From NCBI RefSeq assembly GCF_054482525.1, contig NZ_CM137006.1: 64,000 bases of DNA. The stretch is one strand, 5' to 3'. The position numbers were made by a program, and so were the translations under genes. Below the pieces are notes generated by a model that worked only from the letters and a program-made list of their open reading frames with translations, searched no databases and had not been told where the DNA came from. Numbering within the stretch: position 1 is the stretch's first letter; every line of letters starts with the position of its first letter. Shown one piece after another: positions 1-35,467 of the stretch.

Positions 1-44
1 AACATCTTTGCAATCTTTTTTTGCTTATCTGTTGCGTTTGACAT
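1..44 (-). CDS. orf110 hypothetical protein, 5' 44 nt only (rest lies left of window)
   Basis: Positions 1-44 correspond to 8744-8787 of the complete copy-2 ORF 8455-8787. Confidence 0.4.
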   Translation of the reverse strand, partial: MSNATDKQKKIAKM

Positions 45-67
45 TTTCCCTTTCCCTTCAACTAGAT

Positions 68-364
68 TTAATCATTACATTCAACCGTTGCTACGGTTCC
101 ATAATAAGTAATGTAAAGAAAACTTCCATTATTGAACTGGCCAACAGAGGTCGATACTTTTACCCCGTAAATGACATTTCCTTGTCTACCTGCAGAATTC
201 ACGAACGCATCATAGGCTTCCTGGTGCTCATTTCTCTTGCGCTCCATAAAACCACGAATTAAACCTTTATCAGAAATTTCAATAGGATAGGTCTTCTCAA
301 TAAATCCATGAATCTCTACTACTTTCATATTGGAGGGCAATGTATCAGTGCTTAACACTAACAT
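68..364 (-). CDS. orf98, hypothetical accessory protein (first gene of a minus-strand two-gene cassette)
   Basis: 98-aa ORF with AAGGA Shine-Dalgarno about 8 nt upstream of the ATG; no TM segment or signal peptide apparent; no family recognised by eye. Confidence 0.55.
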   Translation of the reverse strand: MLVLSTDTLPSNMKVVEIHGFIEKTYPIEISDKGLIRGFMERKRNEHQEAYDAFVNSAGRQGNVIYGVKVSTSVGQFNNGSFLYITYYGTVATVECND

Positions 365-471
365 GTTGATTTCCTTTCAATTAAAGAACCTTAATGACAT
401 TACTTAATTATTTCATTTCAATCAACAACATATGGGTTGTTTTTTATCATTCCGACACTATATCTAGGCGA

Positions 472-494
472 GATAACTAAAATGGCTAGTTATC
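472..494. promoter_or_regulatory. Operator-like palindrome GATAACTA-N7-TAGTTATC in the divergent promoter region between orf98 and the 96-aa gene (recurs at +8743 multiples)
   Basis: Perfect 8-bp inverted repeat with 7-bp spacer, flanked by direct CACTATA repeats (456-462, 494-500), about 25 bp upstream of the ATG at 519. Confidence 0.4.
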
Positions 495-518
495 ACTATA
501 CCTCTAAAGGATAAAATA

Positions 519-809
519 ATGGCTGACTTCTACATAACAGCAGTAAAATATGATGAAAATCATGAACATATCGTTAAGGTTAAAACACGGCAACGAGTTG
601 ATGGTAAGGTTAAAGCACCAAGCATCAATTCTCGCCAATTTATCGTCGAATTGATTAATACCGGAAAGGTATCATTTTGGACTGGATTACAGGATAGCGA
701 AGGACGATGGGGAAAAGGGGCTGACGTGACCGTAACCTCTACTGGTTTCCTGACTACATCACCAAATAATACCACTCGGGATAACCTCGGCGAATTGCCT
801 GAATTTTAA
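519..809 (+). CDS. Hypothetical small protein (96 aa), possibly DUF3892-like
   Basis: AAAGG Shine-Dalgarno 8 nt upstream; the DUF3892 assignment rests on a recalled pattern only (N-terminal Y-I-T-x-V, H-x-H-I, C-terminal DNL-x-x-LPE) and needs an HMM search. Confidence 0.5.
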   Translation: MADFYITAVKYDENHEHIVKVKTRQRVDGKVKAPSINSRQFIVELINTGKVSFWTGLQDSEGRWGKGADVTVTSTGFLTTSPNNTTRDNLGELPEF

Positions 810-817
810 CCAAAAAT

Positions 818-850
818 CAAACGTGCAGTGTAGGTAATACTGCACGTTTG
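818..850. terminator. Stem-loop (11-bp stem) between convergent 96-aa gene and HTH gene; likely bidirectional terminator (recurs per copy)
   Basis: CAAACGTGCAG-N11-CTGCACGTTTG; T-run on the minus-strand side (ATTTTTGG). Confidence 0.55.
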
Positions 851-873
851 TCTCATTCCTGAGACTCTACCTT

Positions 874-1320
874 TTACTGTTCATCGCCAGTGATTAATTT
901 TCTGGTTAACATCTTTGCACTGTAGCTATATGAACTTAAAGCAGAAACCTGTCTTGCAAGTGATATGATATCTTGCTTGTCCAATGTCCTGATGTTCCAG
1001 ATAATGAAGTTATGGGCATCAGTGGTTTCTTTGTCAGTGTAACCATCTGCTGAAGTGATCAACTTTCTTTCTGTTGCGTCTTCTTTAACCGCAAGTGCAT
1101 CACCATGAGCCAAGGTGTTTAAATCCGTACCAGTGATTTTTGCGATTTCGATCACATCACTGAACTTAGGTTCTGTTTTAGCAGTCGCTATCCTAACAAG
1201 TGTCCTTACGTTGATGCCGGTTTTGTCTGCGACTTCTTCGTATGTCCCATGCTCCAGGATAGCTTTCCGTATTCTTTCTGCTCGCTTGCTATCAGCCATA
1301 ACATACAACTCTCGATTCAT
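874..1320 (-). CDS. HTH (XRE/Cro-C1-type) transcriptional regulator, candidate prophage repressor
   Basis: 148 aa; helix-turn-helix signature around residues 26-46 (TYEEVADKTGINVRTLVRIA); GGAG Shine-Dalgarno 9 nt upstream; divergent from gII across an operator-rich intergenic region. Confidence 0.7.
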   Translation of the reverse strand: MNRELYVMADSKRAERIRKAILEHGTYEEVADKTGINVRTLVRIATAKTEPKFSDVIEIAKITGTDLNTLAHGDALAVKEDATERKLITSADGYTDKETTDAHNFIIWNIRTLDKQDIISLARQVSALSSYSYSAKMLTRKLITGDEQ

Positions 1321-1364
1321 CTTAGGTGCTCCAGTTTACATCACTCTTTTTAGATGCTTTTTTT

Positions 1365-1442
1365 CATGGACAAATATGTCCTTAAAAACAAGACATCGTA
1401 TTGACAACAGATCTCAACATGCTTAGCATTTATTTGTCCATG
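1365..1442. promoter_or_regulatory. Candidate operator pair in the HTH-gII divergent intergenic region (recurs per copy)
   Basis: 12-mer TATTTGTCCATG at 1431-1442 with its reverse complement at 1365-1377; embedded palindrome GGACA-N4-TGTCC at 1368-1381; a degenerate third copy near 1455-1472. Confidence 0.45.
1401..1429 (+). promoter_or_regulatory. Candidate sigma70 promoter for gII (TTGACA-17 bp-TAGCAT)
   Basis: Consensus -35 hexamer at 1401-1406, 17-bp spacer, -10-like TAGCAT at 1424-1429; operator 12-mer lies at the predicted start region. Confidence 0.35.
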
Positions 1443-1526
1443 ACTGAAAGACACATTTGTCTATTGACATGGTAAATACAGGTAAAAGTCATTTTGATTC
1501 ATGTTTACTTGACTGCTGAGACACTT

Positions 1527-2579
1527 ATGATCGACTGGTTTACCGGAATCCTGCCTTGCACACACCGACCGTTACCGGCCGGTAGCGTCGTCAGCGTTGA
1601 TGCTGATGGTGCGGTGGAGTGGGAAACAGTAAAACGGTTGACCGTTCGCGGTTCGTATGAATCAACGATGAAAGTAAGATCTGTTGGATCTGATGGCGAA
1701 GGTCGGGCAACACATCTTTATATTGATGGGAATCCTTCAAAATTCCTTCAGGGACATTCTGTTATTGGTTCTGATGATTTGCAGGGACTGGTATTAACCG
1801 TATACGCAAGAATACTGGCATTACTTCATATTCCTCATGATCTCCCGTCATATCGTCAGGTAATGTCTGGTCAGTATAAGATTTCCCGTATTGATATTAA
1901 TTATATGTATTCATTGTCAACACTGGAAAATGTCCGTGCATGGTTATATGCCGCAGAATTTAAAGCGAAAACTCGCCATGGTCGCGCCTGTGGTAAAGGT
2001 GGCACTGTTTACTTAGGGAAAAACTCCCGTCGTTGGAGCCTGAAATTTTATTCAAAATATGATGAGCATATATCTGGCAAAAAAGGGCACCAGATGGCAG
2101 ACGAATTCGTTAAAGCAGGTTTACTGGACTGGTCAAAAGATAAATTACGCATTGAATTAACATTAAGAACAACTGAATTAATTGATTTGAATCTTACGCT
2201 TGGTAATAGCTGGAATATTCAGACGCCCAATAAATTATTCTCTGACTATGTAGGGAGAATAGAAATGAATCAAAATACTATATTAACTGATGAAAAAATA
2301 ATTAATCTCCCAAGAAAAATACAGTCTACATATTTATTGTGGAAGCAGGGCGCGAACATGAAAGAGATGTTACCGAAACCTACATTCTACCGACACCGTA
2401 AAGAATTACTTTCTTTCGGAATAGATATTAACTTTTATTGTGAGTCACCGGATTCTAATAACGTTGTTCCGTTGGTTCGTATTCTTGAAGCCAAACCGGC
2501 CAAAATTCCATCATGGTTTTATGAGAAAGGTTTAATTTTCGATCATAACCGTATTTCACATGCCAGTAACTGGTATTAA
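1527..2579 (+). CDS. gII: Rolling-circle replication initiator, gene II protein homologue
   Basis: N-terminus MIDWF and C-terminal block NNVVPLVR align with M13 gIIp as recalled; alternative in-frame ATG at 1494 (ORF-track start). Confidence 0.85.
   Translation: MIDWFTGILPCTHRPLPAGSVVSVDADGAVEWETVKRLTVRGSYESTMKVRSVGSDGEGRATHLYIDGNPSKFLQGHSVIGSDDLQGLVLTVYARILALLHIPHDLPSYRQVMSGQYKISRIDINYMYSLSTLENVRAWLYAAEFKAKTRHGRACGKGGTVYLGKNSRRWSLKFYSKYDEHISGKKGHQMADEFVKAGLLDWSKDKLRIELTLRTTELIDLNLTLGNSWNIQTPNKLFSDYVGRIEMNQNTILTDEKIINLPRKIQSTYLLWKQGANMKEMLPKPTFYRHRKELLSFGIDINFYCESPDSNNVVPLVRILEAKPAKIPSWFYEKGLIFDHNRISHASNWY
2265..2579 (+). CDS. gX: Gene X-like protein, in-frame internal restart within gII
   Basis: Internal ATG preceded by GGGAG (9 nt); MNQNT start aligns with the M13 gX start (EGDSMNIYDD versus GRIEMNQNT). 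Confidence 0.55.
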   Translation: MNQNTILTDEKIINLPRKIQSTYLLWKQGANMKEMLPKPTFYRHRKELLSFGIDINFYCESPDSNNVVPLVRILEAKPAKIPSWFYEKGLIFDHNRISHASNWY

Positions 2580-2590
2580 AGGAGAGTGAT

Positions 2591-2908
2591 ATGTCTAATT
2601 ATGGTCTTTTTGTAAAAGGTAAAATGCTTGGTGCTCGCCAGCGTAATAAGGTCAATGGTCAGGGATACTATAATGAAATTGGTATTGGCTTAGAGATCCC
2701 TGATGGTTTTGGCGGCACTAAGCAAGACCAGATTATTATTCGTGTTTCTCAGGCTCTTGTTAATGCCGGTGTAATGAATCAGGCAAATAATCTTATCGGT
2801 AAGTTAGTCCAGATACCTGTATATGTTCGTGTCTGGTCAATGGAAGGTAGAGAAGGAGTAACTTATAATATTTCATCTGACGGTGGAATCACTGAAATAA
2901 AAGGTTAA
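2591..2908 (+). CDS. gV: Putative ssDNA-binding protein, gene V analogue
   Basis: 105-aa ORF immediately after gII with AAGGAGAG Shine-Dalgarno; Ff-like position; only weak motif resemblance to M13 gVp. Confidence 0.55.
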   Translation: MSNYGLFVKGKMLGARQRNKVNGQGYYNEIGIGLEIPDGFGGTKQDQIIIRVSQALVNAGVMNQANNLIGKLVQIPVYVRVWSMEGREGVTYNISSDGGITEIKG

Positions 2909-2910
2909 AT

Positions 2911-2997
2911 ATGGCTGATGTTATACAAATATTAATAGCGTCAGGCATTGTTATCTCTTTTGGCCTCGGCGCAATTACTGCGGGGGTTTTTCGTTAA
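2911..2997 (+). CDS. gVII: Minor coat protein, gene VII analogue (28 aa)
   Basis: MADVIQILIASGIVISFGLGAITAGVFR; hydrophobic; C-terminal half resembles M13 gVIIp; too short for the ORF track. Confidence 0.5.
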   Translation: MADVIQILIASGIVISFGLGAITAGVFR

Positions 2998-3092
2998 TGT
3001 ATATAGCTTATTTCTTCGGGGCTTATACCTTTGGTTTTGCCCTTTTCTACGCGGTCGGTTCATTTAAATCATTTTCTGACCGATTAATGTAA
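2997..3092 (+). CDS. gIX: Minor coat protein, gene IX analogue (31 aa)
   Basis: MYIAYFFGAYTFGFALFYAVGSFKSFSDRLM; start overlaps the gVII stop by 1 nt (TAATG), as is typical for Ff VII/IX coupling. Confidence 0.45.
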   Translation: MYIAYFFGAYTFGFALFYAVGSFKSFSDRLM

Positions 3093-3116
3093 TGTAACTT
3101 TAATGGAGTTATTTAT

Positions 3117-3359
3117 ATGAAAGTTTTGTCTTTTGTTAAATCTAAAATTGCAGTAGCTTCAACAGCGCTTTTTGTTTCTGCGAGTTCTTTTGCGGCAGCT
3201 GAGTCTACAGGCGGGACTGATTATGCAGGTCAGGCAATGGATGCATTACTGACTCAGGCAAATGATCTTATTGGTAAAGTATGGCCTGTCGTTGTTGCTG
3301 TGGTTGGTGCTGGCCTTGCCATTCGTATTTTTAAAAAATTCGCTTCTAAAGCAGTTTAA
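3117..3359 (+). CDS. gVIII: Major coat protein precursor
   Basis: 80 aa; signal peptide ending SFAAAE, acidic N-terminus, hydrophobic core, basic C-terminus [12 protein letters not shown] (inovirus major-coat signature); GGAG Shine-Dalgarno. Confidence 0.85.
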
Positions 3360-3369
3360 AATTCACTCA

Positions 3370-3392
3370 GGGGCATTTGTTGCCCCTTTATT
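3370..3392 (+). terminator. Rho-independent terminator after the major coat gene (recurs per copy)
   Basis: GGGGCA-tttgt-TGCCCC followed by TTTATT; same position as the strong terminator after gVIII in Ff phages. Confidence 0.65.
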
Positions 3393-3405
3393 AAATTGGG
3401 TTATT

Positions 3406-4650
3406 ATGAAAAGGAAAATATTAATTACTTTCTCTATTTTTATTTCTTCTTTTTCATATGCTGATTCATGGGAAAGCATTACTAAATCTACTTTTCAAAG
3501 CTCTGCATATGCTGAAAGTAAGCAAATAACCAACCAAGATGGTACTAAACAAACTGTTTATTATATTGATGCAACCATGCAGGCTTCTTCCTGTCAGGGA
3601 GCTAAAGACAGTGCTCAGGTTGTTTTTAATCAGGTTAAACCAACTTATGAGGGAATGTGGCCTAACTCTGAATTCCGTCTTGTATTTTCTGACGCTTGTA
3701 CTTACAGCGACTCTCCAGGCCAGAAAGATAAATACTGGACTTTAACTGCTTATATTATAGGTGATATTCAACGATCTATTCCTGATGAAAAACCTTCCGA
3801 GCCTACGCCTGAAGAGATTTGTGAAGCTAAACCCCCCGAAGAAGGTGTATTCAATAATGTCTATTCTTATGACGGTGATCGTTATATTTATTATAACGGT
3901 TGTGAATATGAGGCCACTGGCGTCATTGTTTGCCAGAGTGATAGCACTGTTTGTGCTGCGACATGGAAGCCTACCGGAACTGTAGCCGCACCTTCAGATA
4001 AGCCTTCTTCTCCTGTTGGCGATGGCGGTGATACTGGAGGCGGGGATACGGGTGATGGTGATACCGGTGGAGGTGATACAGGCGGTGGTAACCCAAGTGG
4101 CAGTTCTGGCGGTGGTAATGGCTCAAGTATCACCAAAGGAGATATTCAGTCAGCTATCGAAGGTGCTTCACCTAAAATTGCCAGTGAGATTCATGATAAG
4201 TTAACAGAAAAAGATACCTCATCTGATGATAAAAAGTCGGCTGATGAACAGACTAAAAATAATATAAATCGTCTTGTTGACTCTATAAATAACCTTACTC
4301 GCGGAGCCGGACGTTTTGCTGATCCTTCTGGCGGCGATTCCCGTTATGGGGAGGGGGGGTCTGAATTAGATAGCGCTTCCACTTTAGCTGAATCTGAATT
4401 AGGAATTGCAAAGGATTCTCATGGTGCGTTATGGGAGGCTTTCTTAAATAAAGGTGCTATGTTGCCCAATTTACCTAATGGTAATGGTTGTTCTGATTTT
4501 ATTATTTTCCCCGGAGAGGTTTATCAGATCGATATTGGCTGCGATAAATTACTGACTATTAAAAATGCTCTTTCATGGGTTTTTTATTGCCTTACGTTCT
4601 GGTATGTATTTACTTCTTTAACTTCATTGCTTCGTAAAGGTGGTGAGTGA
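3406..4650 (+). CDS. gIII: Minor coat / adsorption protein pIII
   Basis: Signal peptide [19 protein letters not shown], Cys-containing N-terminal domains, Gly/Asp-rich linker repeats, C-terminal membrane anchor; ORF-track ORF 3262-4650 trimmed to the first in-frame ATG after the gVIII terminator. Confidence 0.8.
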
Positions 4651-4991
4651 TGCCTTTATTATTAGGTATTCCTGCATTGTTGCGTTTTCTTATTGGTCTT
4701 GTTCCTTTACTTATTGGCTATGCGGCAAGTTTTTTAGCTCGGCTTGCAACCAAAACAGGTTTAATAGCGGTTGCATTGGTTGCGCTAATTACAACAACTG
4801 TTACGCTTTTAATGCAGTACCTTGCTGAGGTCATGTATATCGGGTTACCCGCTGATTTTTCACATCTAATGGCGTCTGTACTGCCTGACCATTTTCAGGC
4901 GTGTGTTAACGTTATTATGGTTACTCGTATCAGTGTTTTTGTTTTCGATTTAAAACAAAAATTTCTTGATTATGCAAACAGGGTGATTTAA
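4647..4991 (+). CDS. gVI: Minor coat protein pVI
   Basis: 114 aa, hydrophobic; [15 protein letters not shown] aligns with M13 pVI MPVLLGIPLLLRFL. Confidence 0.8.
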
Positions 4992-6086
4992 ATGGCGGTT
5001 CATGTAGTAACAGGCAAATTAGGCTCAGGCAAGACACTGGTTAGTGTTTCCAGAATACAGGAAAGACTGGCTAAGGGTTGTCCTGTTGCCACTAATCTTG
5101 ATCTTAAATTGCATAATATGCCTATGGTTGGGCGTTATGCTAAAAAAACGCGCGTTATTCGTGTTCCTGATAAGCCTTCATTAAATGATTTACTGGCTAT
5201 TGGTATTGGAAATACATCTTACGATGAATCCCGCAATGGCCTTTTAGTGCTTGATGAATGTGGTACTTGGTTTAATTCCCGTTCATGGGGTGATAAAGAC
5301 AGACAACCTGTTATTGACTGGTTTTTACATGCCCGTAAATTAGGTTGGGATATTATTTTTTTGATTCAGGATATTTCGATAATGGATAAGCAAGCTCGTC
5401 TGGCACTTGCTGAACATGTTGTTTATTGTCGCCGTTCAGATAAATTAAACATTCCTTTTATTGGCTCTATTATAAATTTAGTTTCAGGAGCGCGATTTTC
5501 TTTACCAAAGGTACACTTTGGTATTGTTAAATATGGTGATAACGTTAATTCAATTACTGTTGATAAATGGATATACACCGGAAAATCATTATATTCCGCC
5601 TACAATACAAAACAGGTTTTTACTGATAACTATCCGCATGGTGCTTATTCTCTTTTACCGCCATTTATTACACATGGCCAGTTTTCTGTTCACAAAGGAC
5701 TTAATTATTATATGCGCCTCACGAAAATTTATTTCCGAAAATCAAACCGATTAATATTAATGCTTTCATTTTTTGCCTTTGGGCTTGGGCTTGGCTTCTG
5801 GCTACAATCTGGTAAGAATGCCGATGAAATTTCGGCTATTAAATCAGTTCATGCTGAACAGGTGAGGGCGGTAACACCTGACAGTACCAGCGATTTACCG
5901 AGACTTTCTATTGATTCTTTCTCTCAGCTTGGTTTTGATGTTTCTGTTACGTTTGTTGACGCTAAGGGTATGAAGTACCAGTATTTTGATTTAATTAAAG
6001 ATGGTTATTCCGTTGATATTAAAGATGCCTGCCGAATTGTTATCAGAAAAGGCCATTATTTACAAAGCGTCACCTGTCAGGAGTAA
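4992..6086 (+). CDS. gI: Assembly ATPase pI (Zot-like)
   Basis: 364 aa; Walker A GKLGSGKT; extensive similarity to M13 pI along the length as recalled. Confidence 0.9.
   Translation: MAVHVVTGKLGSGKTLVSVSRIQERLAKGCPVATNLDLKLHNMPMVGRYAKKTRVIRVPDKPSLNDLLAIGIGNTSYDESRNGLLVLDECGTWFNSRSWGDKDRQPVIDWFLHARKLGWDIIFLIQDISIMDKQARLALAEHVVYCRRSDKLNIPFIGSIINLVSGARFSLPKVHFGIVKYGDNVNSITVDKWIYTGKSLYSAYNTKQVFTDNYPHGAYSLLPPFITHGQFSVHKGLNYYMRLTKIYFRKSNRLILMLSFFAFGLGLGFWLQSGKNADEISAIKSVHAEQVRAVTPDSTSDLPRLSIDSFSQLGFDVSVTFVDAKGMKYQYFDLIKDGYSVDIKDACRIVIRKGHYLQSVTCQE
5712..6086 (+). CDS. gXI: pXI-like protein, in-frame internal restart within gI
   Basis: Internal Met at codon 241 (MRLTKIYFRK), the same codon position as M13 pXI (MKLTKIYLKK). 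Confidence 0.5.
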   Translation: MRLTKIYFRKSNRLILMLSFFAFGLGLGFWLQSGKNADEISAIKSVHAEQVRAVTPDSTSDLPRLSIDSFSQLGFDVSVTFVDAKGMKYQYFDLIKDGYSVDIKDACRIVIRKGHYLQSVTCQE

Positions 6087-6093
6087 TATTACT

Positions 6094-7359
6094 ATGCGTT
6101 TATTTTGCATTGCCATCTTATTCATTTATTCTTTTTGTGTTTCTGCTGAAACTGTTAATCTTAATAATTCATCCGTTCGTTCATTTGTCCAGTGGTATTC
6201 ATCAAAAACTGGTAAGCCTGTTATTGTTAACCCCGATGTTAAAGGCTCCGTAACAGTATTTAATGCTGATGTTAATCCCACAAATATTGATGACTTTTTC
6301 AAATCTGTTCTGAATGCTAATGGATTTGTCATGCTTTCTGGTAATCCTGCGGTAGTATCTTTGCCGTCAAAATTACCGTCACAGATGGCATCAGACCCTG
6401 ATGATTCCGATAATCAGTCTTATGACTCTTTTCCGCCAGAGCCATCCTGTCAGCCAGCGCCTGTGGCGCTCACTGTCAGAAATTTTAAGCTGACAAAAGT
6501 ACGAGCGTCTGATGTTCAGCAACTGGTTAAAATTTATCTGGATTCGAATGGCGGGGGTAATGTCGTGGATTATCCCGGCAATAACTCCCTGATTGTATCT
6601 GCGCCTGACGAGCTACTGCCTGTTCTGTCCAATTTCATTAACTCAGTTGATGTTGCCCGTGATCAGGTACTCATTCAATCGCTCATGTTTGAAACCAGTT
6701 TGTCTGATGGTGTTGATTTGTCATTTGCAGCTGGCTCTGCATCCGGCCATAAGGTGGCGGGGGGTTTTAATACTTCTGCGCTGGGTAATGCTCTTTCTAC
6801 GGTGGGCGGCTCTTTTGGTATTTTTGATGGTAACGTGTTGGCGCTGTCTCTGCGTGCTGTCCAGAGTAATTCACGCTCTAAGGTGATTTCAACACCGCGC
6901 ATTCTTACTCAGTCCGGTCAGACTGGTTATATTTCCGTAGGTAAGAATGTGCCGTTTATCACAGGAAAGGTAACGGGTGAATCTGCTGGGGTAAATAATC
7001 CGTTTCAGACTATCGAACGTCATGATGTTGGCGTTTCTCTCAAGGTAACGCCTGTTGTCATGGGGAACGGGCAATTAGTTTTGACCATCGATACCCGCGC
7101 CGATTCAATCAGCAATGATGACCAAGCATCTGATATTATTACTAATCAGCGCCAGATTCAGACCACTGTTCAGATTAAGGATGGCCAGACTCTCTTACTT
7201 GGTGGGTTGATTGATTCATCATCCAGCAATGCTGACCGTTCTGTACCATTTATCAGCAAAATTCCGGTAATTGGCTGGCTTTTCAGGAGTAAAGCTGACA
7301 GTAATGAGCAACGCATTATGTATGTCCTGCTGACTGCTCATATTATTCGTGCGCTTTGA
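6094..7359 (+). CDS. gIV: Secretin pIV (outer-membrane export channel)
   Basis: 421 aa from the ATG with AGGAG Shine-Dalgarno; signal peptide MRLFCIAILFIYSFCVSA; secretin motifs conserved with M13 pIV (e.g. GQNVPFITG-like, VPFISKIPVIG). Confidence 0.9.
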   Translation: MRLFCIAILFIYSFCVSAETVNLNNSSVRSFVQWYSSKTGKPVIVNPDVKGSVTVFNADVNPTNIDDFFKSVLNANGFVMLSGNPAVVSLPSKLPSQMASDPDDSDNQSYDSFPPEPSCQPAPVALTVRNFKLTKVRASDVQQLVKIYLDSNGGGNVVDYPGNNSLIVSAPDELLPVLSNFINSVDVARDQVLIQSLMFETSLSDGVDLSFAAGSASGHKVAGGFNTSALGNALSTVGGSFGIFDGNVLALSLRAVQSNSRSKVISTPRILTQSGQTGYISVGKNVPFITGKVTGESAGVNNPFQTIERHDVGVSLKVTPVVMGNGQLVLTIDTRADSISNDDQASDIITNQRQIQTTVQIKDGQTLLLGGLIDSSSSNADRSVPFISKIPVIGWLFRSKADSNEQRIMYVLLTAHIIRAL

Positions 7360-7402
7360 TGGGGCCGTGGCGGGTGCGTTAAGCCCCGGTATGGCCCCAT
7401 CA
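7357..7402 (+). terminator. Compound hairpin immediately after the secretin gene stop (recurs per copy)
   Basis: TGATGGGGCC ... GGCCCCATCA 10-bp inverted repeat enclosing a GC-rich inner region; start of the phage intergenic region. Confidence 0.4.
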
Positions 7403-7799
7403 AGAGCCAGATTTTACGTCTCACCACGGAGCCTCTATATGGCCTTAAAACTGACAGGATATGAACAGAAAAACATCTTCTAGGTGATTCAATTACTTAG
7501 AGGTTTTTATGTCTGTAAAAAGTAGGGGCGCGATCGACTTCCTGGTGGTCGCCTGAAGTCTTACCGTCGTGTTGGTTCACATTTTACCAGTTGTTCCAAG
7601 TGGTTTGATAAATCACCGTCCTGGTATCGCAATATGATGATGACCCGGCCAGAGCGCCGTGAAGTCAGAAAGCTTCTCAATCAGGTTGTACGTGGCCGTG
7701 ACGCTGACGGCATCGCATTTCCGGTCAGCAACAAGCCATTTGCATGGCGGTGGTGAACATTTTTAGCCGCTAAAACTTCATGCTGACGGAATTATCGAA

Positions 7800-7844
7800 A
7801 ACCCCGTACAGCAACAAAACTTGTTTTTGTTGCTGTACGGGGTT
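7800..7844. other. Perfect 20-bp-stem hairpin (5-nt loop) in the intergenic region: candidate packaging signal and/or minus-strand terminator for orf81 (recurs per copy)
   Basis: AAACCCCGTACAGCAACAAAA-cttgt-TTTTGTTGCTGTACGGGGTT; TTTTC follows on the minus strand. Confidence 0.5.
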
Positions 7845-7906
7845 GGCCAAGCCGCAACAGTACTCTATTTTTCTTTGGAGTTAATTGCGGCGCGGCTAGG
7901 GATGTA

Positions 7907-8152
7907 TCAGACTTTAATCTTAACTACTTTTTCAGTGCCGGTCATAAAACTAACCAGCTTCTTGCGGCCATCGGGATACTCTTTAATGACACATCCTTCT
8001 GGCGTATTTTTTTCAGCGTAATAAATAGGGACGCCACTAAGAAGACAGGCTCGGGCTGCTTCACCGACATCATGTTCTAGTTGCTGCTCGAAAACAGTCA
8101 AGAACTCTGCTTCCTCTGATGGTGTCATTTCAGCTAAATATGATAAGTCCAT
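7907..8152 (-). CDS. orf81, hypothetical accessory protein
   Basis: 81-aa ORF between the intergenic hairpin region and the att site; the 20-bp-stem hairpin at 7800-7844 is followed by a T-run on the minus strand and could terminate it. Confidence 0.45.
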   Translation of the reverse strand: MDLSYLAEMTPSEEAEFLTVFEQQLEHDVGEAARACLLSGVPIYYAEKNTPEGCVIKEYPDGRKKLVSFMTGTEKVVKIKV

Positions 8153-8354
8153 AAATGCTCATGCCTTCTGTAATTCATTGCTTAGTAACAATGATGAACA
8201 GGCCTGATTGGTGAGGTCAGGCTGTTCACTTACTGCTGACAGACATTTGATTCTGATTCGTTTGGAGAAACGGATGATTTTGAATCATTGTCGATAGTAA
8301 CCAGTTGACGGCCAGTGTCAACGATCCCCGCCAGATTCTGCCATCCTTACCATT

Positions 8355-8387
8355 GGTGCGCATAATGTGCTACACGTTATGTTGAAA
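8355..8387 (+). other. Phage att (dif-like) site at copy junction: XerC arm GGTGCGCATAA, 11-bp spacer TGTGCTACACG, XerD-like arm TTATGTTGAAA
   Basis: Perfect match to the XerC-binding arm of E. coli dif; best XerD-like arm (9 of 11) is displaced 5 bp relative to dif geometry. Confidence 0.8.
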
Positions 8388-8420
8388 AGGCCGCTGCGAA
8401 AATAGAACCCCGCAGCGGCC
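8385..8420 (-). terminator. Rho-independent terminator for the minus-strand orf98-orf110 cassette, abutting the att site (recurs per copy)
   Basis: GGCCGCTGCG-N12-CGCAGCGGCC with a T-run on the minus strand (8385-8388). Confidence 0.55.
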
Positions 8421-8454
8421 TCTTTAGCATAACGTCATTGTGCGAACCAATTAT

Positions 8455-8787
8455 TTATTTTTTTGATTTTTGAGTTGCCTCAATTTCTTTTTTTAAACCA
8501 TGAAGGTTTTTATGACCGGTTCCCTTTGGTTGTAACTGTCCCCTTTGTAACTTACTGATTCTATTTCCTCTTTCTGATATTACTATTTCATCATTCAGGG
8601 ATTTTTCAATCAATGCATACAACGCATTGAATACTTTGATGTTTTCTGATTCCCTCAACTCTTCGAGGATTTTACTTAGTTGTAGAAAGTCATTAATTAA
8701 ACTAACGCCATTTTTAGGATCGTAAAACTCCTCATGTCGTTTTAACATCTTTGCAATCTTTTTTTGCTTATCTGTTGCGTTTGACAT
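8455..8787 (-). CDS. orf110, hypothetical accessory protein (second gene of the minus-strand cassette)
   Basis: 110 aa, charged, basic C-terminal tail, no TM segment; 23-bp gap after orf98; followed by a hairpin plus T-run terminator at 8385-8420. Confidence 0.55.
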   Translation of the reverse strand: MSNATDKQKKIAKMLKRHEEFYDPKNGVSLINDFLQLSKILEELRESENIKVFNALYALIEKSLNDEIVISERGNRISKLQRGQLQPKGTGHKNLHGLKKEIEATQKSKK

Positions 8788-8810
8788 TTTCCCTTTCCCT
8801 TCAACTAGAT

Positions 8811-9107
8811 TTAATCATTACATTCAACCGTTGCTACGGTTCCATAATAAGTAATGTAAAGAAAACTTCCATTATTGAACTGGCCAACAGAGGTCGATAC
8901 TTTTACCCCGTAAATGACATTTCCTTGTCTACCTGCAGAATTCACGAACGCATCATAGGCTTCCTGGTGCTCATTTCTCTTGCGCTCCATAAAACCACGA
9001 ATTAAACCTTTATCAGAAATTTCAATAGGATAGGTCTTCTCAATAAATCCATGAATCTCTACTACTTTCATATTGGAGGGCAATGTATCAGTGCTTAACA
9101 CTAACAT
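8811..9107 (-). CDS. orf98 hypothetical accessory protein (copy 2)
   Basis: Repeat of 68-364 at +8743; identical translation. Confidence 0.55.
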   Translation of the reverse strand: MLVLSTDTLPSNMKVVEIHGFIEKTYPIEISDKGLIRGFMERKRNEHQEAYDAFVNSAGRQGNVIYGVKVSTSVGQFNNGSFLYITYYGTVATVECND

Positions 9108-9261
9108 GTTGATTTCCTTTCAATTAAAGAACCTTAATGACATTACTTAATTATTTCATTTCAATCAACAACATATGGGTTGTTTTTTATCATTCCGACA
9201 CTATATCTAGGCGAGATAACTAAAATGGCTAGTTATCACTATACCTCTAAAGGATAAAATA

Positions 9262-9552
9262 ATGGCTGACTTCTACATAACAGCAGTAAAATATGATGAA
9301 AATCATGAACATATCGTTAAGGTTAAAACACGGCAACGAGTTGATGGTAAGGTTAAAGCACCAAGCATCAATTCTCGCCAATTTATCGTCGAATTGATTA
9401 ATACCGGAAAGGTATCATTTTGGACTGGATTACAGGATAGCGAAGGACGATGGGGAAAAGGGGCTGACGTGACCGTAACCTCTACTGGTTTCCTGACTAC
9501 ATCACCAAATAATACCACTCGGGATAACCTCGGCGAATTGCCTGAATTTTAA
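9262..9552 (+). CDS. Hypothetical small protein (96 aa), possibly DUF3892-like (copy 2)
   Basis: Repeat of 519-809 at +8743. Confidence 0.5.
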   Translation: MADFYITAVKYDENHEHIVKVKTRQRVDGKVKAPSINSRQFIVELINTGKVSFWTGLQDSEGRWGKGADVTVTSTGFLTTSPNNTTRDNLGELPEF

Positions 9553-17097: not shown

Positions 17098-17130
17098 GGT
17101 GCGCATAATGTGCTACACGTTATGTTGAAA
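17098..17130 (+). other. Phage att (dif-like) site, junction of copies 2 and 3
   Basis: Identical to 8355-8387. Confidence 0.8.
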
Positions 17131-18004: not shown

Positions 18005-18295
18005 ATGGCTGACTTCTACATAACAGCAGTAAAATATGATGAAAATCATGAACATATCGTTAAGGTTAAAACACGGCAACGAGTTGATGGTAAGGTTAAA
18101 GCACCAAGCATCAATTCTCGCCAATTTATCGTCGAATTGATTAATACCGGAAAGGTATCATTTTGGACTGGATTACAGGATAGCGAAGGACGATGGGGAA
18201 AAGGGGCTGACGTGACCGTAACCTCTACTGGTTTCCTGACTACATCACCAAATAATACCACTCGGGATAACCTCGGCGAATTGCCTGAATTTTAA
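18005..18295 (+). CDS. Hypothetical small protein (96 aa), possibly DUF3892-like (copy 3)
   Basis: Repeat at +17486. Confidence 0.5.
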   Translation: MADFYITAVKYDENHEHIVKVKTRQRVDGKVKAPSINSRQFIVELINTGKVSFWTGLQDSEGRWGKGADVTVTSTGFLTTSPNNTTRDNLGELPEF

Positions 18296-26747: not shown

Positions 26748-27038
26748 ATGGCTGACTTCTACATAACAGCAGTAAAATATGATGAAAATCATGAACATAT
26801 CGTTAAGGTTAAAACACGGCAACGAGTTGATGGTAAGGTTAAAGCACCAAGCATCAATTCTCGCCAATTTATCGTCGAATTGATTAATACCGGAAAGGTA
26901 TCATTTTGGACTGGATTACAGGATAGCGAAGGACGATGGGGAAAAGGGGCTGACGTGACCGTAACCTCTACTGGTTTCCTGACTACATCACCAAATAATA
27001 CCACTCGGGATAACCTCGGCGAATTGCCTGAATTTTAA
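26748..27038 (+). CDS. Hypothetical small protein (96 aa), possibly DUF3892-like (copy 4)
   Basis: Repeat at +26229. Confidence 0.5.
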   Translation: MADFYITAVKYDENHEHIVKVKTRQRVDGKVKAPSINSRQFIVELINTGKVSFWTGLQDSEGRWGKGADVTVTSTGFLTTSPNNTTRDNLGELPEF

Positions 27039-34583: not shown

Positions 34584-34611
34584 GGTGCGCATAATGTATA
34601 TTATGTTAAAT
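34584..34611 (+). other. dif: Chromosomal dif site (XerC arm, 6-bp central region, XerD arm)
   Basis: Exact 28-mer GGTGCGCATAATGTATATTATGTTAAAT, the canonical E. coli dif as recalled; phage sequence ends within or next to the central region. Confidence 0.93.
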
Positions 34612-34779: not shown

Positions 34780-35034
34780 GTGCAAATGAACACCCCCTCT
34801 TTCTATCAACACTTCAGACAGCTTGCGGGAATGAGTTCACTCCGGTATCAGAAATGGCTACGCCTCAATGAAGCCAGGCGACTGATGCTGAATGAACATT
34901 ACGATGTCACCACTGCAGCCTATGCTGTCGGTTACGAAAGCTTATCCCATTTCAGTCGGGAATATTCGCGGATATTTGGAGAGTCACCTAAGAGAGATAT
35001 TACTAAATTAAGAAAGCCTCTTGGTCAGCTTTAA
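34780..35034 (+). pseudogene. yneL: AraC-family HTH C-terminal fragment (yneL-like remnant)
   Basis: 84-aa ORF matching only the C-terminal HTH-containing part of AraC/XylS regulators; position next to dif matches the K-12 yneL pseudogene as recalled. Confidence 0.55.
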
Positions 35035-35467
35035 TAAACCCTGCACTTATCTGGTTAGAGCATTTCGGCATTAGTTTCACTATGCAAACATTAACCATAG
35101 CTAATGATTTATAGCCATATAAACCATTAGTCGCTCTTGACTTTTCCTGACACTTCCCTTGTTCGCAATAATATTCTGTTTAGTCGCTGTTTATAAATAT
35201 CATGCATAATGAAATCGTCATGTTATTTAGCGACATAAAATGTCTTTGCAAATACTCTCTACAACAAGTGCTGCAATAAACTTGTTGTGATTAGGTGTCC
35301 TTGTAATTTAAAGATATTATCGTTCTTCGTGAAATGTAATAACCCTGGAAACTATATTCTCAGGGCAACAACCAATTAAGAATGATTCTTGTTTTATAAG
35401 CAATAACAGAATGACTTAATTGTTAACTCTCTTTATTCAGCTACTTAAATATAAATTTTGGAGAATT

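Follow-up and report, generated by a model that had tools for sequence, protein, structure and literature searches.

The stretch of DNA considered here, referred to as the window, covers 64,000 nucleotides of contig NZ_CM137006.1 (RefSeq assembly GCF_054482525.1) and contains near its start a small gene, for a protein of 96 aa, that lies behind a perfect palindrome. This arrangement raises the question of what the gene is and what carries it, and of whether the palindrome is the site through which it is regulated. The initial annotation, made from the sequence alone, saw in the gene a protein resembling DUF3892, and in the palindrome a candidate binding site for the adjacent HTH regulator or a host factor that could coordinate two divergent transcripts. 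Taken as a whole, the analysis makes it probable that the gene is a DUF3892 moron of a dif-integrated inovirus with a likely role in conflict, and that the palindrome is either a product of chance or local to the cassette, rather than the operator of the adjacent HTH repressor. The features of the locus are as follows.

68-364, minus strand: orf98, a divergent accessory gene of 98 aa (Pfam YbjQ_2, E=0.17, not significant)
456-462 and 494-500, plus strand: CACTATA direct repeats, the second overlapping the last base of the palindrome
472-494, unstranded: palindrome GATAACTA-N7-TAGTTATC, arms 472-479 and 487-494, 25-47 nt before the ATG
506-511, plus strand: Shine-Dalgarno sequence AAAGGA, read directly
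519-809, plus strand: stand-alone 96-aa DUF3892 gene (open reading frame; Pfam PF13031; PHROG 32719)
818-867, unstranded: double hairpin, with a 12-bp stem (818-829/839-850) and a 5-6 bp stem (850-865)
874-1320, minus strand: repressor-like HTH regulator of 148 aa, convergent with the DUF3892 gene (PHROG 3557, E=1e-61; weak HTH_3 match)

The family assignment was borne out by the Pfam search. PF13031 is matched with E=4.3e-9 and 37.2 bits over its full length (model positions 2-71 of 71, residues 6-94 of the protein), PHROG 32719 is matched with E=7.5e-16, and the identical protein is already present in NCBI as 'DUF3892 domain-containing protein [Escherichia coli]'. An exhaustive homologue search returned 309 homologous cluster representatives at E<=1e-3. 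Among the 150 listed of these, nearly all are around 95-105 aa long and align from end to end, and the 96-aa protein is at most 55% identical to any other cluster found. Thirteen residues are invariant in the 15 closest homologues, namely H17, I18, R39, F53, T55, G67, T80, N83, D88, N89, L90, L93, and P94, and the same 15 have a C-terminal RDNLGxLPEF motif in common. The AlphaFold (AF2) model has a pLDDT of 91.4 and a beta-beta-beta-alpha-beta-beta order followed by an ordered tail. When it was compared with AFDB50 by Foldseek, 113 matches were obtained at E<=1e-3; the top matches listed have TM values of about 0.8-0.94, with the DUF3892 models at around 0.9, are nearly all named DUF3892, and come from both bacteria and archaea. 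One of the AFDB matches is fused to a ThsB TIR-like domain. No solved structural relative was found in the structure searches. A possible domain-fusion clue, the 243-aa protein P0065, was discarded, as it consists of DUF3892 alone and a tail with an insignificant match. The protein is predicted to be a small soluble domain of beta-beta-beta-alpha-beta-beta order that carries an invariant polar set of H17, R39, T55, N83, D88, and N89. In fold, length, and DNLGxLPEF motif it is the same as the stand-alone proteins of about 100 aa that make up PF13031, and it is distinct from other DUF3892 proteins in its carrier alone, an inovirus. No description of an inovirus carrying DUF3892 was found in the literature searched.

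The nature of this carrier is apparent from a periodicity analysis, in which positions 1-34597 of the window repeat with a period of 8743 bp and zero mismatches. This region corresponds to about 3.96 identical, head-to-tail copies of an 8743-bp inovirus prophage and, because the window starts within the array, the true number of prophage copies is at least four. The presence of the array also explains why the 96-aa gene and its palindrome recur four times in identical form: the feature is repeated at +8743, +17486, and +26229, with further gene copies at 9262-9552, 18005-18295, and 26748-27038 and further palindromes at 9215, 17958, and 26701. The principal features of the array, given for its first copy, are the following.

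1-34597, plus strand: inovirus prophage array (8743-bp period; TIGR01629; PHROG 702; Pfam labels of the same genes in L001-L008)
1494-2579: Rep II/X (TIGR01629, E=8e-78; PHROG 702)
2591-2908: G5P, G5P-like
3117-3359: major coat gene
ending at 4650: G3P-like gene
4647-4991: DUF5455 gene
4992-6086: Zot/pI
6001-7359: secretin gene
8455-8787, minus strand: accessory gene of 110 aa, in the same cargo block and downstream of orf98 (no Pfam match)
34584-34611, plus strand: intact chromosomal dif site GGTGCGCATAATGTATATTATGTTAAAT, 28 bp, at the right end of the array

Here L001-L008 are eight other assemblies that bear the cassette, and the Pfam labels obtained there were used for the identical phage genes. 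An inovirus gene set, made up of Rep II/X, G5P, coat, G3P-like, Zot/pI, and secretin genes, is therefore found within one small unit. Downstream of the secretin gene, positions 7800-7844 can fold into a hairpin whose 20-bp stem is perfectly paired and whose loop has 5 nt (DNA value -24 kcal/mol), a candidate for a phage packaging signal or a terminator.

The sequence at 34584-34611 is one that we take to be the E. coli dif sequence. Every junction between copies harbors a hybrid site, attP-like and dif-like, GGTGCGCATAATGT joined to GCTACACGTTATGTTGAAA (for example at 8355-8387, and also at 17098 and 25841), in which the central region is longer than in dif. Together, dif and the hybrid junction sites would fit integration of the XerCD type. 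Beyond the array, the host flank contains fimbrial chaperone and usher genes, YdeP, GadB/GadC, and a diguanylate cyclase, and the opposite flank, visible in the draft genomes L003-L008, is hipBA; in their gene content, both flanks fit the terminus region of E. coli. A short AraC-type C-terminal fragment is found directly after dif (34780-35035) and is probably a yneL-like pseudogene of that terminus region.

The relatives of this prophage are presumably CUS-1 of E. coli O18:K1:H7, or UTI89-type, and Ypf-phi of Yersinia pestis, with the tandem arrays being of the kind that we associate with CTX-phi. Like the UTI89-type and other dif-integrating filamentous prophages, the one described here occupies the same dif site beside hipBA and has the order regulator, Rep II/X, G5P, and coat; as in CTX-phi-style arrays, the copies are found in tandem. 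In the INPHARED phage collection, a counterpart was found for only about 490 bp of the first 9 kb, namely the gene I region of I2-2 (75%).

Within this unit the DUF3892 gene occupies a variable slot that has the attachment site on one side and the phage repressor gene on the other. In seven of the eight cassette-bearing loci the DNA is identical to positions 1-1000 of the window. The eighth, L005, has a single mismatch up to window position 857, just beyond the main hairpin stem, after which it diverges: its regulator is 43% identical, and several of its structural genes have different Pfam labels and lengths, such that the cassette there sits on a second backbone. The UTI89-type prophages, which are found at the same chromosomal place, keep the backbone order and the hairpin and hold unrelated genes in the slot. 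Thus, the slot contains the 110-aa, 98-aa, and DUF3892 genes here, whereas in UTI89 it contains genes for 369 and 140 aa, and in FDAARGOS_1257 genes for 159, 91, and 140 aa. The DNA of the DUF3892 gene has no matches in 5,426 complete E. coli genomes, and that of the hairpin has matches in 133 of the 5,426. A homologue of the DUF3892 protein, with 55% identity, is found in another inovirus. Judged by these comparisons, the DUF3892 gene is an exchangeable cargo gene, or moron, of a filamentous prophage.

The neighbors of the DUF3892 gene within the slot also have homologues elsewhere. The protein encoded by orf98 has graded homologues across the Enterobacterales, outside inoviruses; its two closest relatives with readable flanks stand alone without DUF3892, and close homologues occur without either DUF3892 or the palindrome. 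A reading of orf98 as a YbjQ-family protein was rejected, given that the Pfam match is insignificant and indicates a weak YbjQ-like resemblance at most. Graded homologues of the 110-aa protein are likewise found outside inoviruses and across the Enterobacterales, including Serratia and Proteus, and also in Moraxella. A further small cargo reading frame, of 81 aa (7907-8152, minus strand), matches PHROG 21003.

The boundary of the slot on the repressor side is formed by the double hairpin, which lies beyond the range 365-809 covered by the initial annotation. Its main part is a perfect 12-bp stem with a 9-nt loop, and the folding z-score is around -7.5 on both strands. The stable, G+C-containing stem-loop is followed by a U-run, as is characteristic of an intrinsic terminator. 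The tail on the minus strand, ATTTTTGG, is the better T-run and that on the plus strand, GTTTGTCTCATT, is weak; the hairpin therefore fits the HTH gene as well as, or better than, the DUF3892 gene. Over 47-48 bp (820-867) it is 98-100% identical in 133 E. coli genomes, and alignment places this match at 820-866, with the palindrome region outside the conserved stretch. Compared with the UTI89-type prophage, the 47-bp hairpin is 98-100% identical, and the HTH gene next to it has no more than about 76% DNA identity. As it is nearly invariant while its neighbors diverge, the hairpin is a backbone element and a module junction. The terminator that had been described behind the 96-aa gene is accordingly present, but its stem has 12 bp rather than 11, and it belongs to the backbone that is shared with relatives lacking the DUF3892 gene. 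On the strength of its folding and conservation, we consider 818-867, which separates the convergent DUF3892 and HTH genes, to be an element of the phage backbone that resembles a terminator in both directions. Across three inovirus backbones the double hairpin is nearly invariant and its flanks are either unrelated or 43-76% identical, and it marks the point at which cargo blocks are exchanged.

In several respects this organization is that of the phage morons, which are cargo genes that lie at module borders and have a promoter and a terminator of their own. The DUF3892 gene has a separate orientation and its own Shine-Dalgarno sequence, is bounded by a hairpin, and varies among related phages, and its homologues lie at the integrase, repressor-lysis, and umuDC borders of tailed prophages. 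It is unlike morons in that its promoter is a predicted one and its terminator belongs to the backbone, not to the cargo. The Shine-Dalgarno sequence, which had been described as good, is indeed AAAGGA and lies 7 nt before the ATG. The view of the gene as a separately regulated accessory gene hence holds for its separate organization, with its own Shine-Dalgarno sequence and a place between a divergent spacer and a hairpin, but not for regulation by the HTH protein through the palindrome.

What such a cargo gene might do is suggested by the contexts in which its homologues are found. When 23 loci were compared no recurrent neighbor gene was found, and the homologues are solo genes. One is carried by an ICE that also has ArdA, a relaxase, and an integrase. 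A scan of IMG/VR viral contigs, with an alignment of 15 DUF3892 sequences as the query, gave 17 loci, 16 of which are on contigs of 13-87 kb, far larger than an inovirus genome. The homologues in these contigs adjoin an integrase, separate a CI-like repressor from the lysis genes, or are neighbors of umuDC, and such positions at the module borders of tailed prophages are typical of phage cargo genes. In one further locus (L017, 5001-7214) a DUF3892 homologue with 54% identity is located directly upstream of, and on the same strand as, a gene for a 617-aa NERD/UvrD-like helicase, and the two could form a defense-like pair. Another record, 'Salmonella phage S.Kent 1-2-1' (L016, GenBank OR851399.1), was rejected as a phage, since this 1.9-kb fragment resembles the dusB-fis region of a bacterial chromosome; it contains two reading frames that read as fis and dusB together with a 102-aa DUF3892 gene. 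PADLOC gave no match for the DUF3892, 98-aa, or 81-aa proteins and weak stray matches for others.

DUF3892 operons have been described under CapH/CapP-like regulators, in work that also cites an earlier prediction of a role in defense (10.1101/2022.04.27.489752), and the DUF3892 fold has been likened to the dsRNA-binding domain and to ribosome hibernation factors (10.1101/2025.01.14.632903). In both of these sources the link between DUF3892 and defense is a prediction (10.1101/2022.04.27.489752; 10.1101/2025.01.14.632903). The present locus resembles the CapH/CapP operons in that a DUF3892 gene adjoins a gene for an HTH regulator (10.1101/2022.04.27.489752). However, those operons contain an HTH repressor and a metallopeptidase that are divergent from the DUF3892 genes, whereas the HTH gene here is convergent and is the phage's own repressor homologue, present also in relatives without DUF3892. 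As no metallopeptidase partner is found in the 8743-bp unit and PADLOC gives no match, the locus is not a system of the CapH/CapP type. A role in conflict is consistent with the fusion to the ThsB TIR-like domain, with the helicase neighbor, and with the published predictions. From these contexts, DUF3892 would most likely serve as a binding module or sensor where mobile elements and hosts are in conflict, with possible outcomes such as exclusion of, or defense against, other phages, or counter-defense. The protein would be expressed in the lysogen, independently of the phage operon for replication and assembly.

How the gene is transcribed bears directly on the palindrome. The best sigma-70-like candidates in the divergent spacer are as follows.

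422-450, plus strand: candidate promoter of the DUF3892 gene, TCAACA-17-TATCAT, predicted start at about 457
397-425, minus strand: candidate promoter of orf98, TTGATT-17-TAATGT, predicted start at about 390

Both of these score at background, the candidate at 422-450 being equal to the median of background windows, so the independent transcription of the DUF3892 gene is something that we infer. The gene is probably transcribed from a weak sigma-70 promoter within the AT-rich, 154-bp spacer, and this transcription would run into the strong double hairpin of the backbone, which would also end the convergent repressor gene. Counted from the predicted start of the background-scoring candidate, the palindrome would fall within the leader of the DUF3892 gene, from about +16 to +38. 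In the same predicted geometry it would be about 80 bp upstream of the leftward start, and not between or over both promoters.

The palindrome itself is present as had been claimed, with perfect 8-bp GATAACTA/TAGTTATC arms around a 7-nt spacer, a dyad length and spacing that would suit the operator of a transcription factor. It can be extended to 10-bp arms with one mismatch (470-479/487-496), and the CACTATA repeats that were said to flank it are also found. Of shuffles of the 154-bp spacer, which has 29% G+C, 7% contain a perfect inverted repeat whose arms are >=8 and whose loop is <=12. The one-mismatch score (a 9-of-10 match), taken over the 90 nt upstream, is reached in 2.5% of shuffles, and a 7-mer direct repeat arises in 53-72%. 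At these frequencies the palindrome is no more than suggestive, and the CACTATA repeats count for nothing as evidence. Within each 8743-bp phage the palindrome is present in a single copy, and the sole other exact half-site, at 5625, falls inside the Zot gene.

Comparison with relatives gives no sign of conservation. The palindrome is confined to loci that carry the identical cassette. It is found upstream of diverged DUF3892 homologues in none of 20 loci, where only L038 has an inverted repeat that beats its own shuffles, and over 21 DUF3892 loci the mean best upstream inverted repeat is 6.1, compared with 5.8 in shuffles. DUF3892 homologues of 55% identity or less have neither alignable upstream DNA nor a common palindrome. 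For the homologues of orf98 at 90-92% protein identity, the upstream DNA is unrelated, with homology starting at the ribosome-binding site, and the palindrome is absent. Footprinting from the eight cassette-bearing loci was tried and is uninformative, as the copies are identical, with L005 having its one mismatch up to 857.

The reading that best survives these results is that the palindrome and the CACTATA repeats are functionless, chance features of the spacer, for which we would give close to an even chance. An equal or better perfect inverted repeat arises in shuffles of the spacer at the frequency given above, as do 7-mer direct repeats, and neither recurrence nor conservation is seen in any relative. 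Against this stands the p of about 0.025 under the one-mismatch score, as well as the location just upstream of the Shine-Dalgarno sequence, which is a frequent place for regulatory sites. With p at around 0.03-0.07 and a position 25 nt before the start codon, the palindrome could on these grounds be a real operator.

If it is one, it may bind some other dimeric DNA-binding protein, such as a host regulator, the 110-aa or 98-aa cargo protein, or an autoregulating DUF3892, which would then form a roadblock shortly after the DUF3892 promoter, although we regard this as unlikely. Its place relative to the best promoter candidate, from +16 to +38, and the modestly non-random symmetry both speak for such an operator, and the comparison of DUF3892 with nucleic-acid-binding folds (10.1101/2025.01.14.632903) is in keeping with it. 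It is countered by the values for the 21 loci, which show that genes of the DUF3892 family are not generally preceded by inverted repeats, and by domain searches of the 98-aa and 110-aa proteins, which gave no DNA-binding domain. Moreover, we know of no E. coli regulator whose consensus the palindrome resembles, which also counts against such an operator.

A role in RNA, as a 5'-UTR stem-loop that stabilizes the DUF3892 mRNA or modulates its translation, seems improbable. With a start at about 457 the stem-loop would lie within a 62-nt leader, and the centroid fold retains the 8-bp stem. Yet the leader folds no better than its shuffles (z=-0.25), the stem is A/U-rich and weak, with a value of -4.2 kcal/mol as a DNA hairpin, the start site is a predicted one, and an Rfam search of window positions 1-9000 gave no match.

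The original proposal, in which the 148-aa HTH regulator or a host factor uses the palindrome as its operator and the divergent orf98 and DUF3892 transcripts are coordinated through it, fares worst among the regulatory readings and is very unlikely. It has in its favor a perfect dyad with a spacing that would fit a dimeric HTH protein, the divergent intergenic position with an HTH gene nearby, and a symmetry that is somewhat rarer than chance. A filamentous-phage repressor, however, would be expected to act between its own gene and rep, and in the present phage this region contains other inverted repeats, which can be listed as one further feature.

1357-1464, unstranded: region between the HTH gene and rep with candidate HTH operators, namely CATGGACAAATA / ACAAATATGTC / ACATTTGTC-type inverted repeats

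Repeats of the inverted ACAAATATGTC/ACATTTGT type recur across this intergenic region, and alignment with L005 and UTI89 reveals their counterparts around conserved TTGACA boxes. These repeats bear no resemblance to GATAACTA, and the palindrome is absent from the region. From their position, we infer that these repeats are the operators of the HTH regulator. An 11-mer of these repeats is common to the window and L005, and UTI89 differs at the aligned position; 1357-1464 looks like an immunity-specific operator region. Attribution of the palindrome to the adjacent regulator is therefore not supported, there being different repeats in the regulator-rep region and no second palindrome in the phage. 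Coordination of both divergent transcripts is not supported either: the palindrome is missing from the orf98 relatives at 90-92% identity, and the predicted geometry places it in the DUF3892 leader, distant from the leftward promoter. In addition, the cargo block moves among backbones independently of the regulator gene. As the operator of the repressor, the palindrome is not worth pursuing. An origin, a packaging signal, or a recombination site was rejected because the palindrome lies in the variable cargo slot, the contents of which differ in related phages.

The palindrome would thus have arisen by chance in AT-rich DNA, or else be a cassette-specific site in a transcribed leader. In the second case it might serve as a roadblock operator for some other protein or form a weak 5' hairpin, and in neither case would it be the operator of the adjacent HTH repressor. 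A more ambitious proposal, in which DUF3892 is an inovirus-borne conflict factor whose expression is gated by the palindrome, either via some other repressor or by binding to its own leader, is in our view a long shot; if true, a function and a regulatory site would for the first time be assigned to this bacterial and archaeal family.

The value of the analysis is mainly one of clarification, as the exact protein was already labeled DUF3892 in NCBI. What is added is the context, in which DUF3892 appears as the swappable cargo of a dif-integrated filamentous prophage that forms a perfect tandem array. A second inovirus, tailed prophages, and an ICE likewise carry DUF3892 as a solo cargo gene. 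This pattern of carriage supports, without proving, the published idea that the family takes part in conflicts between mobile elements and their hosts and, since the carrier is a small prophage of E. coli, it would offer a convenient test bed for the function of DUF3892.
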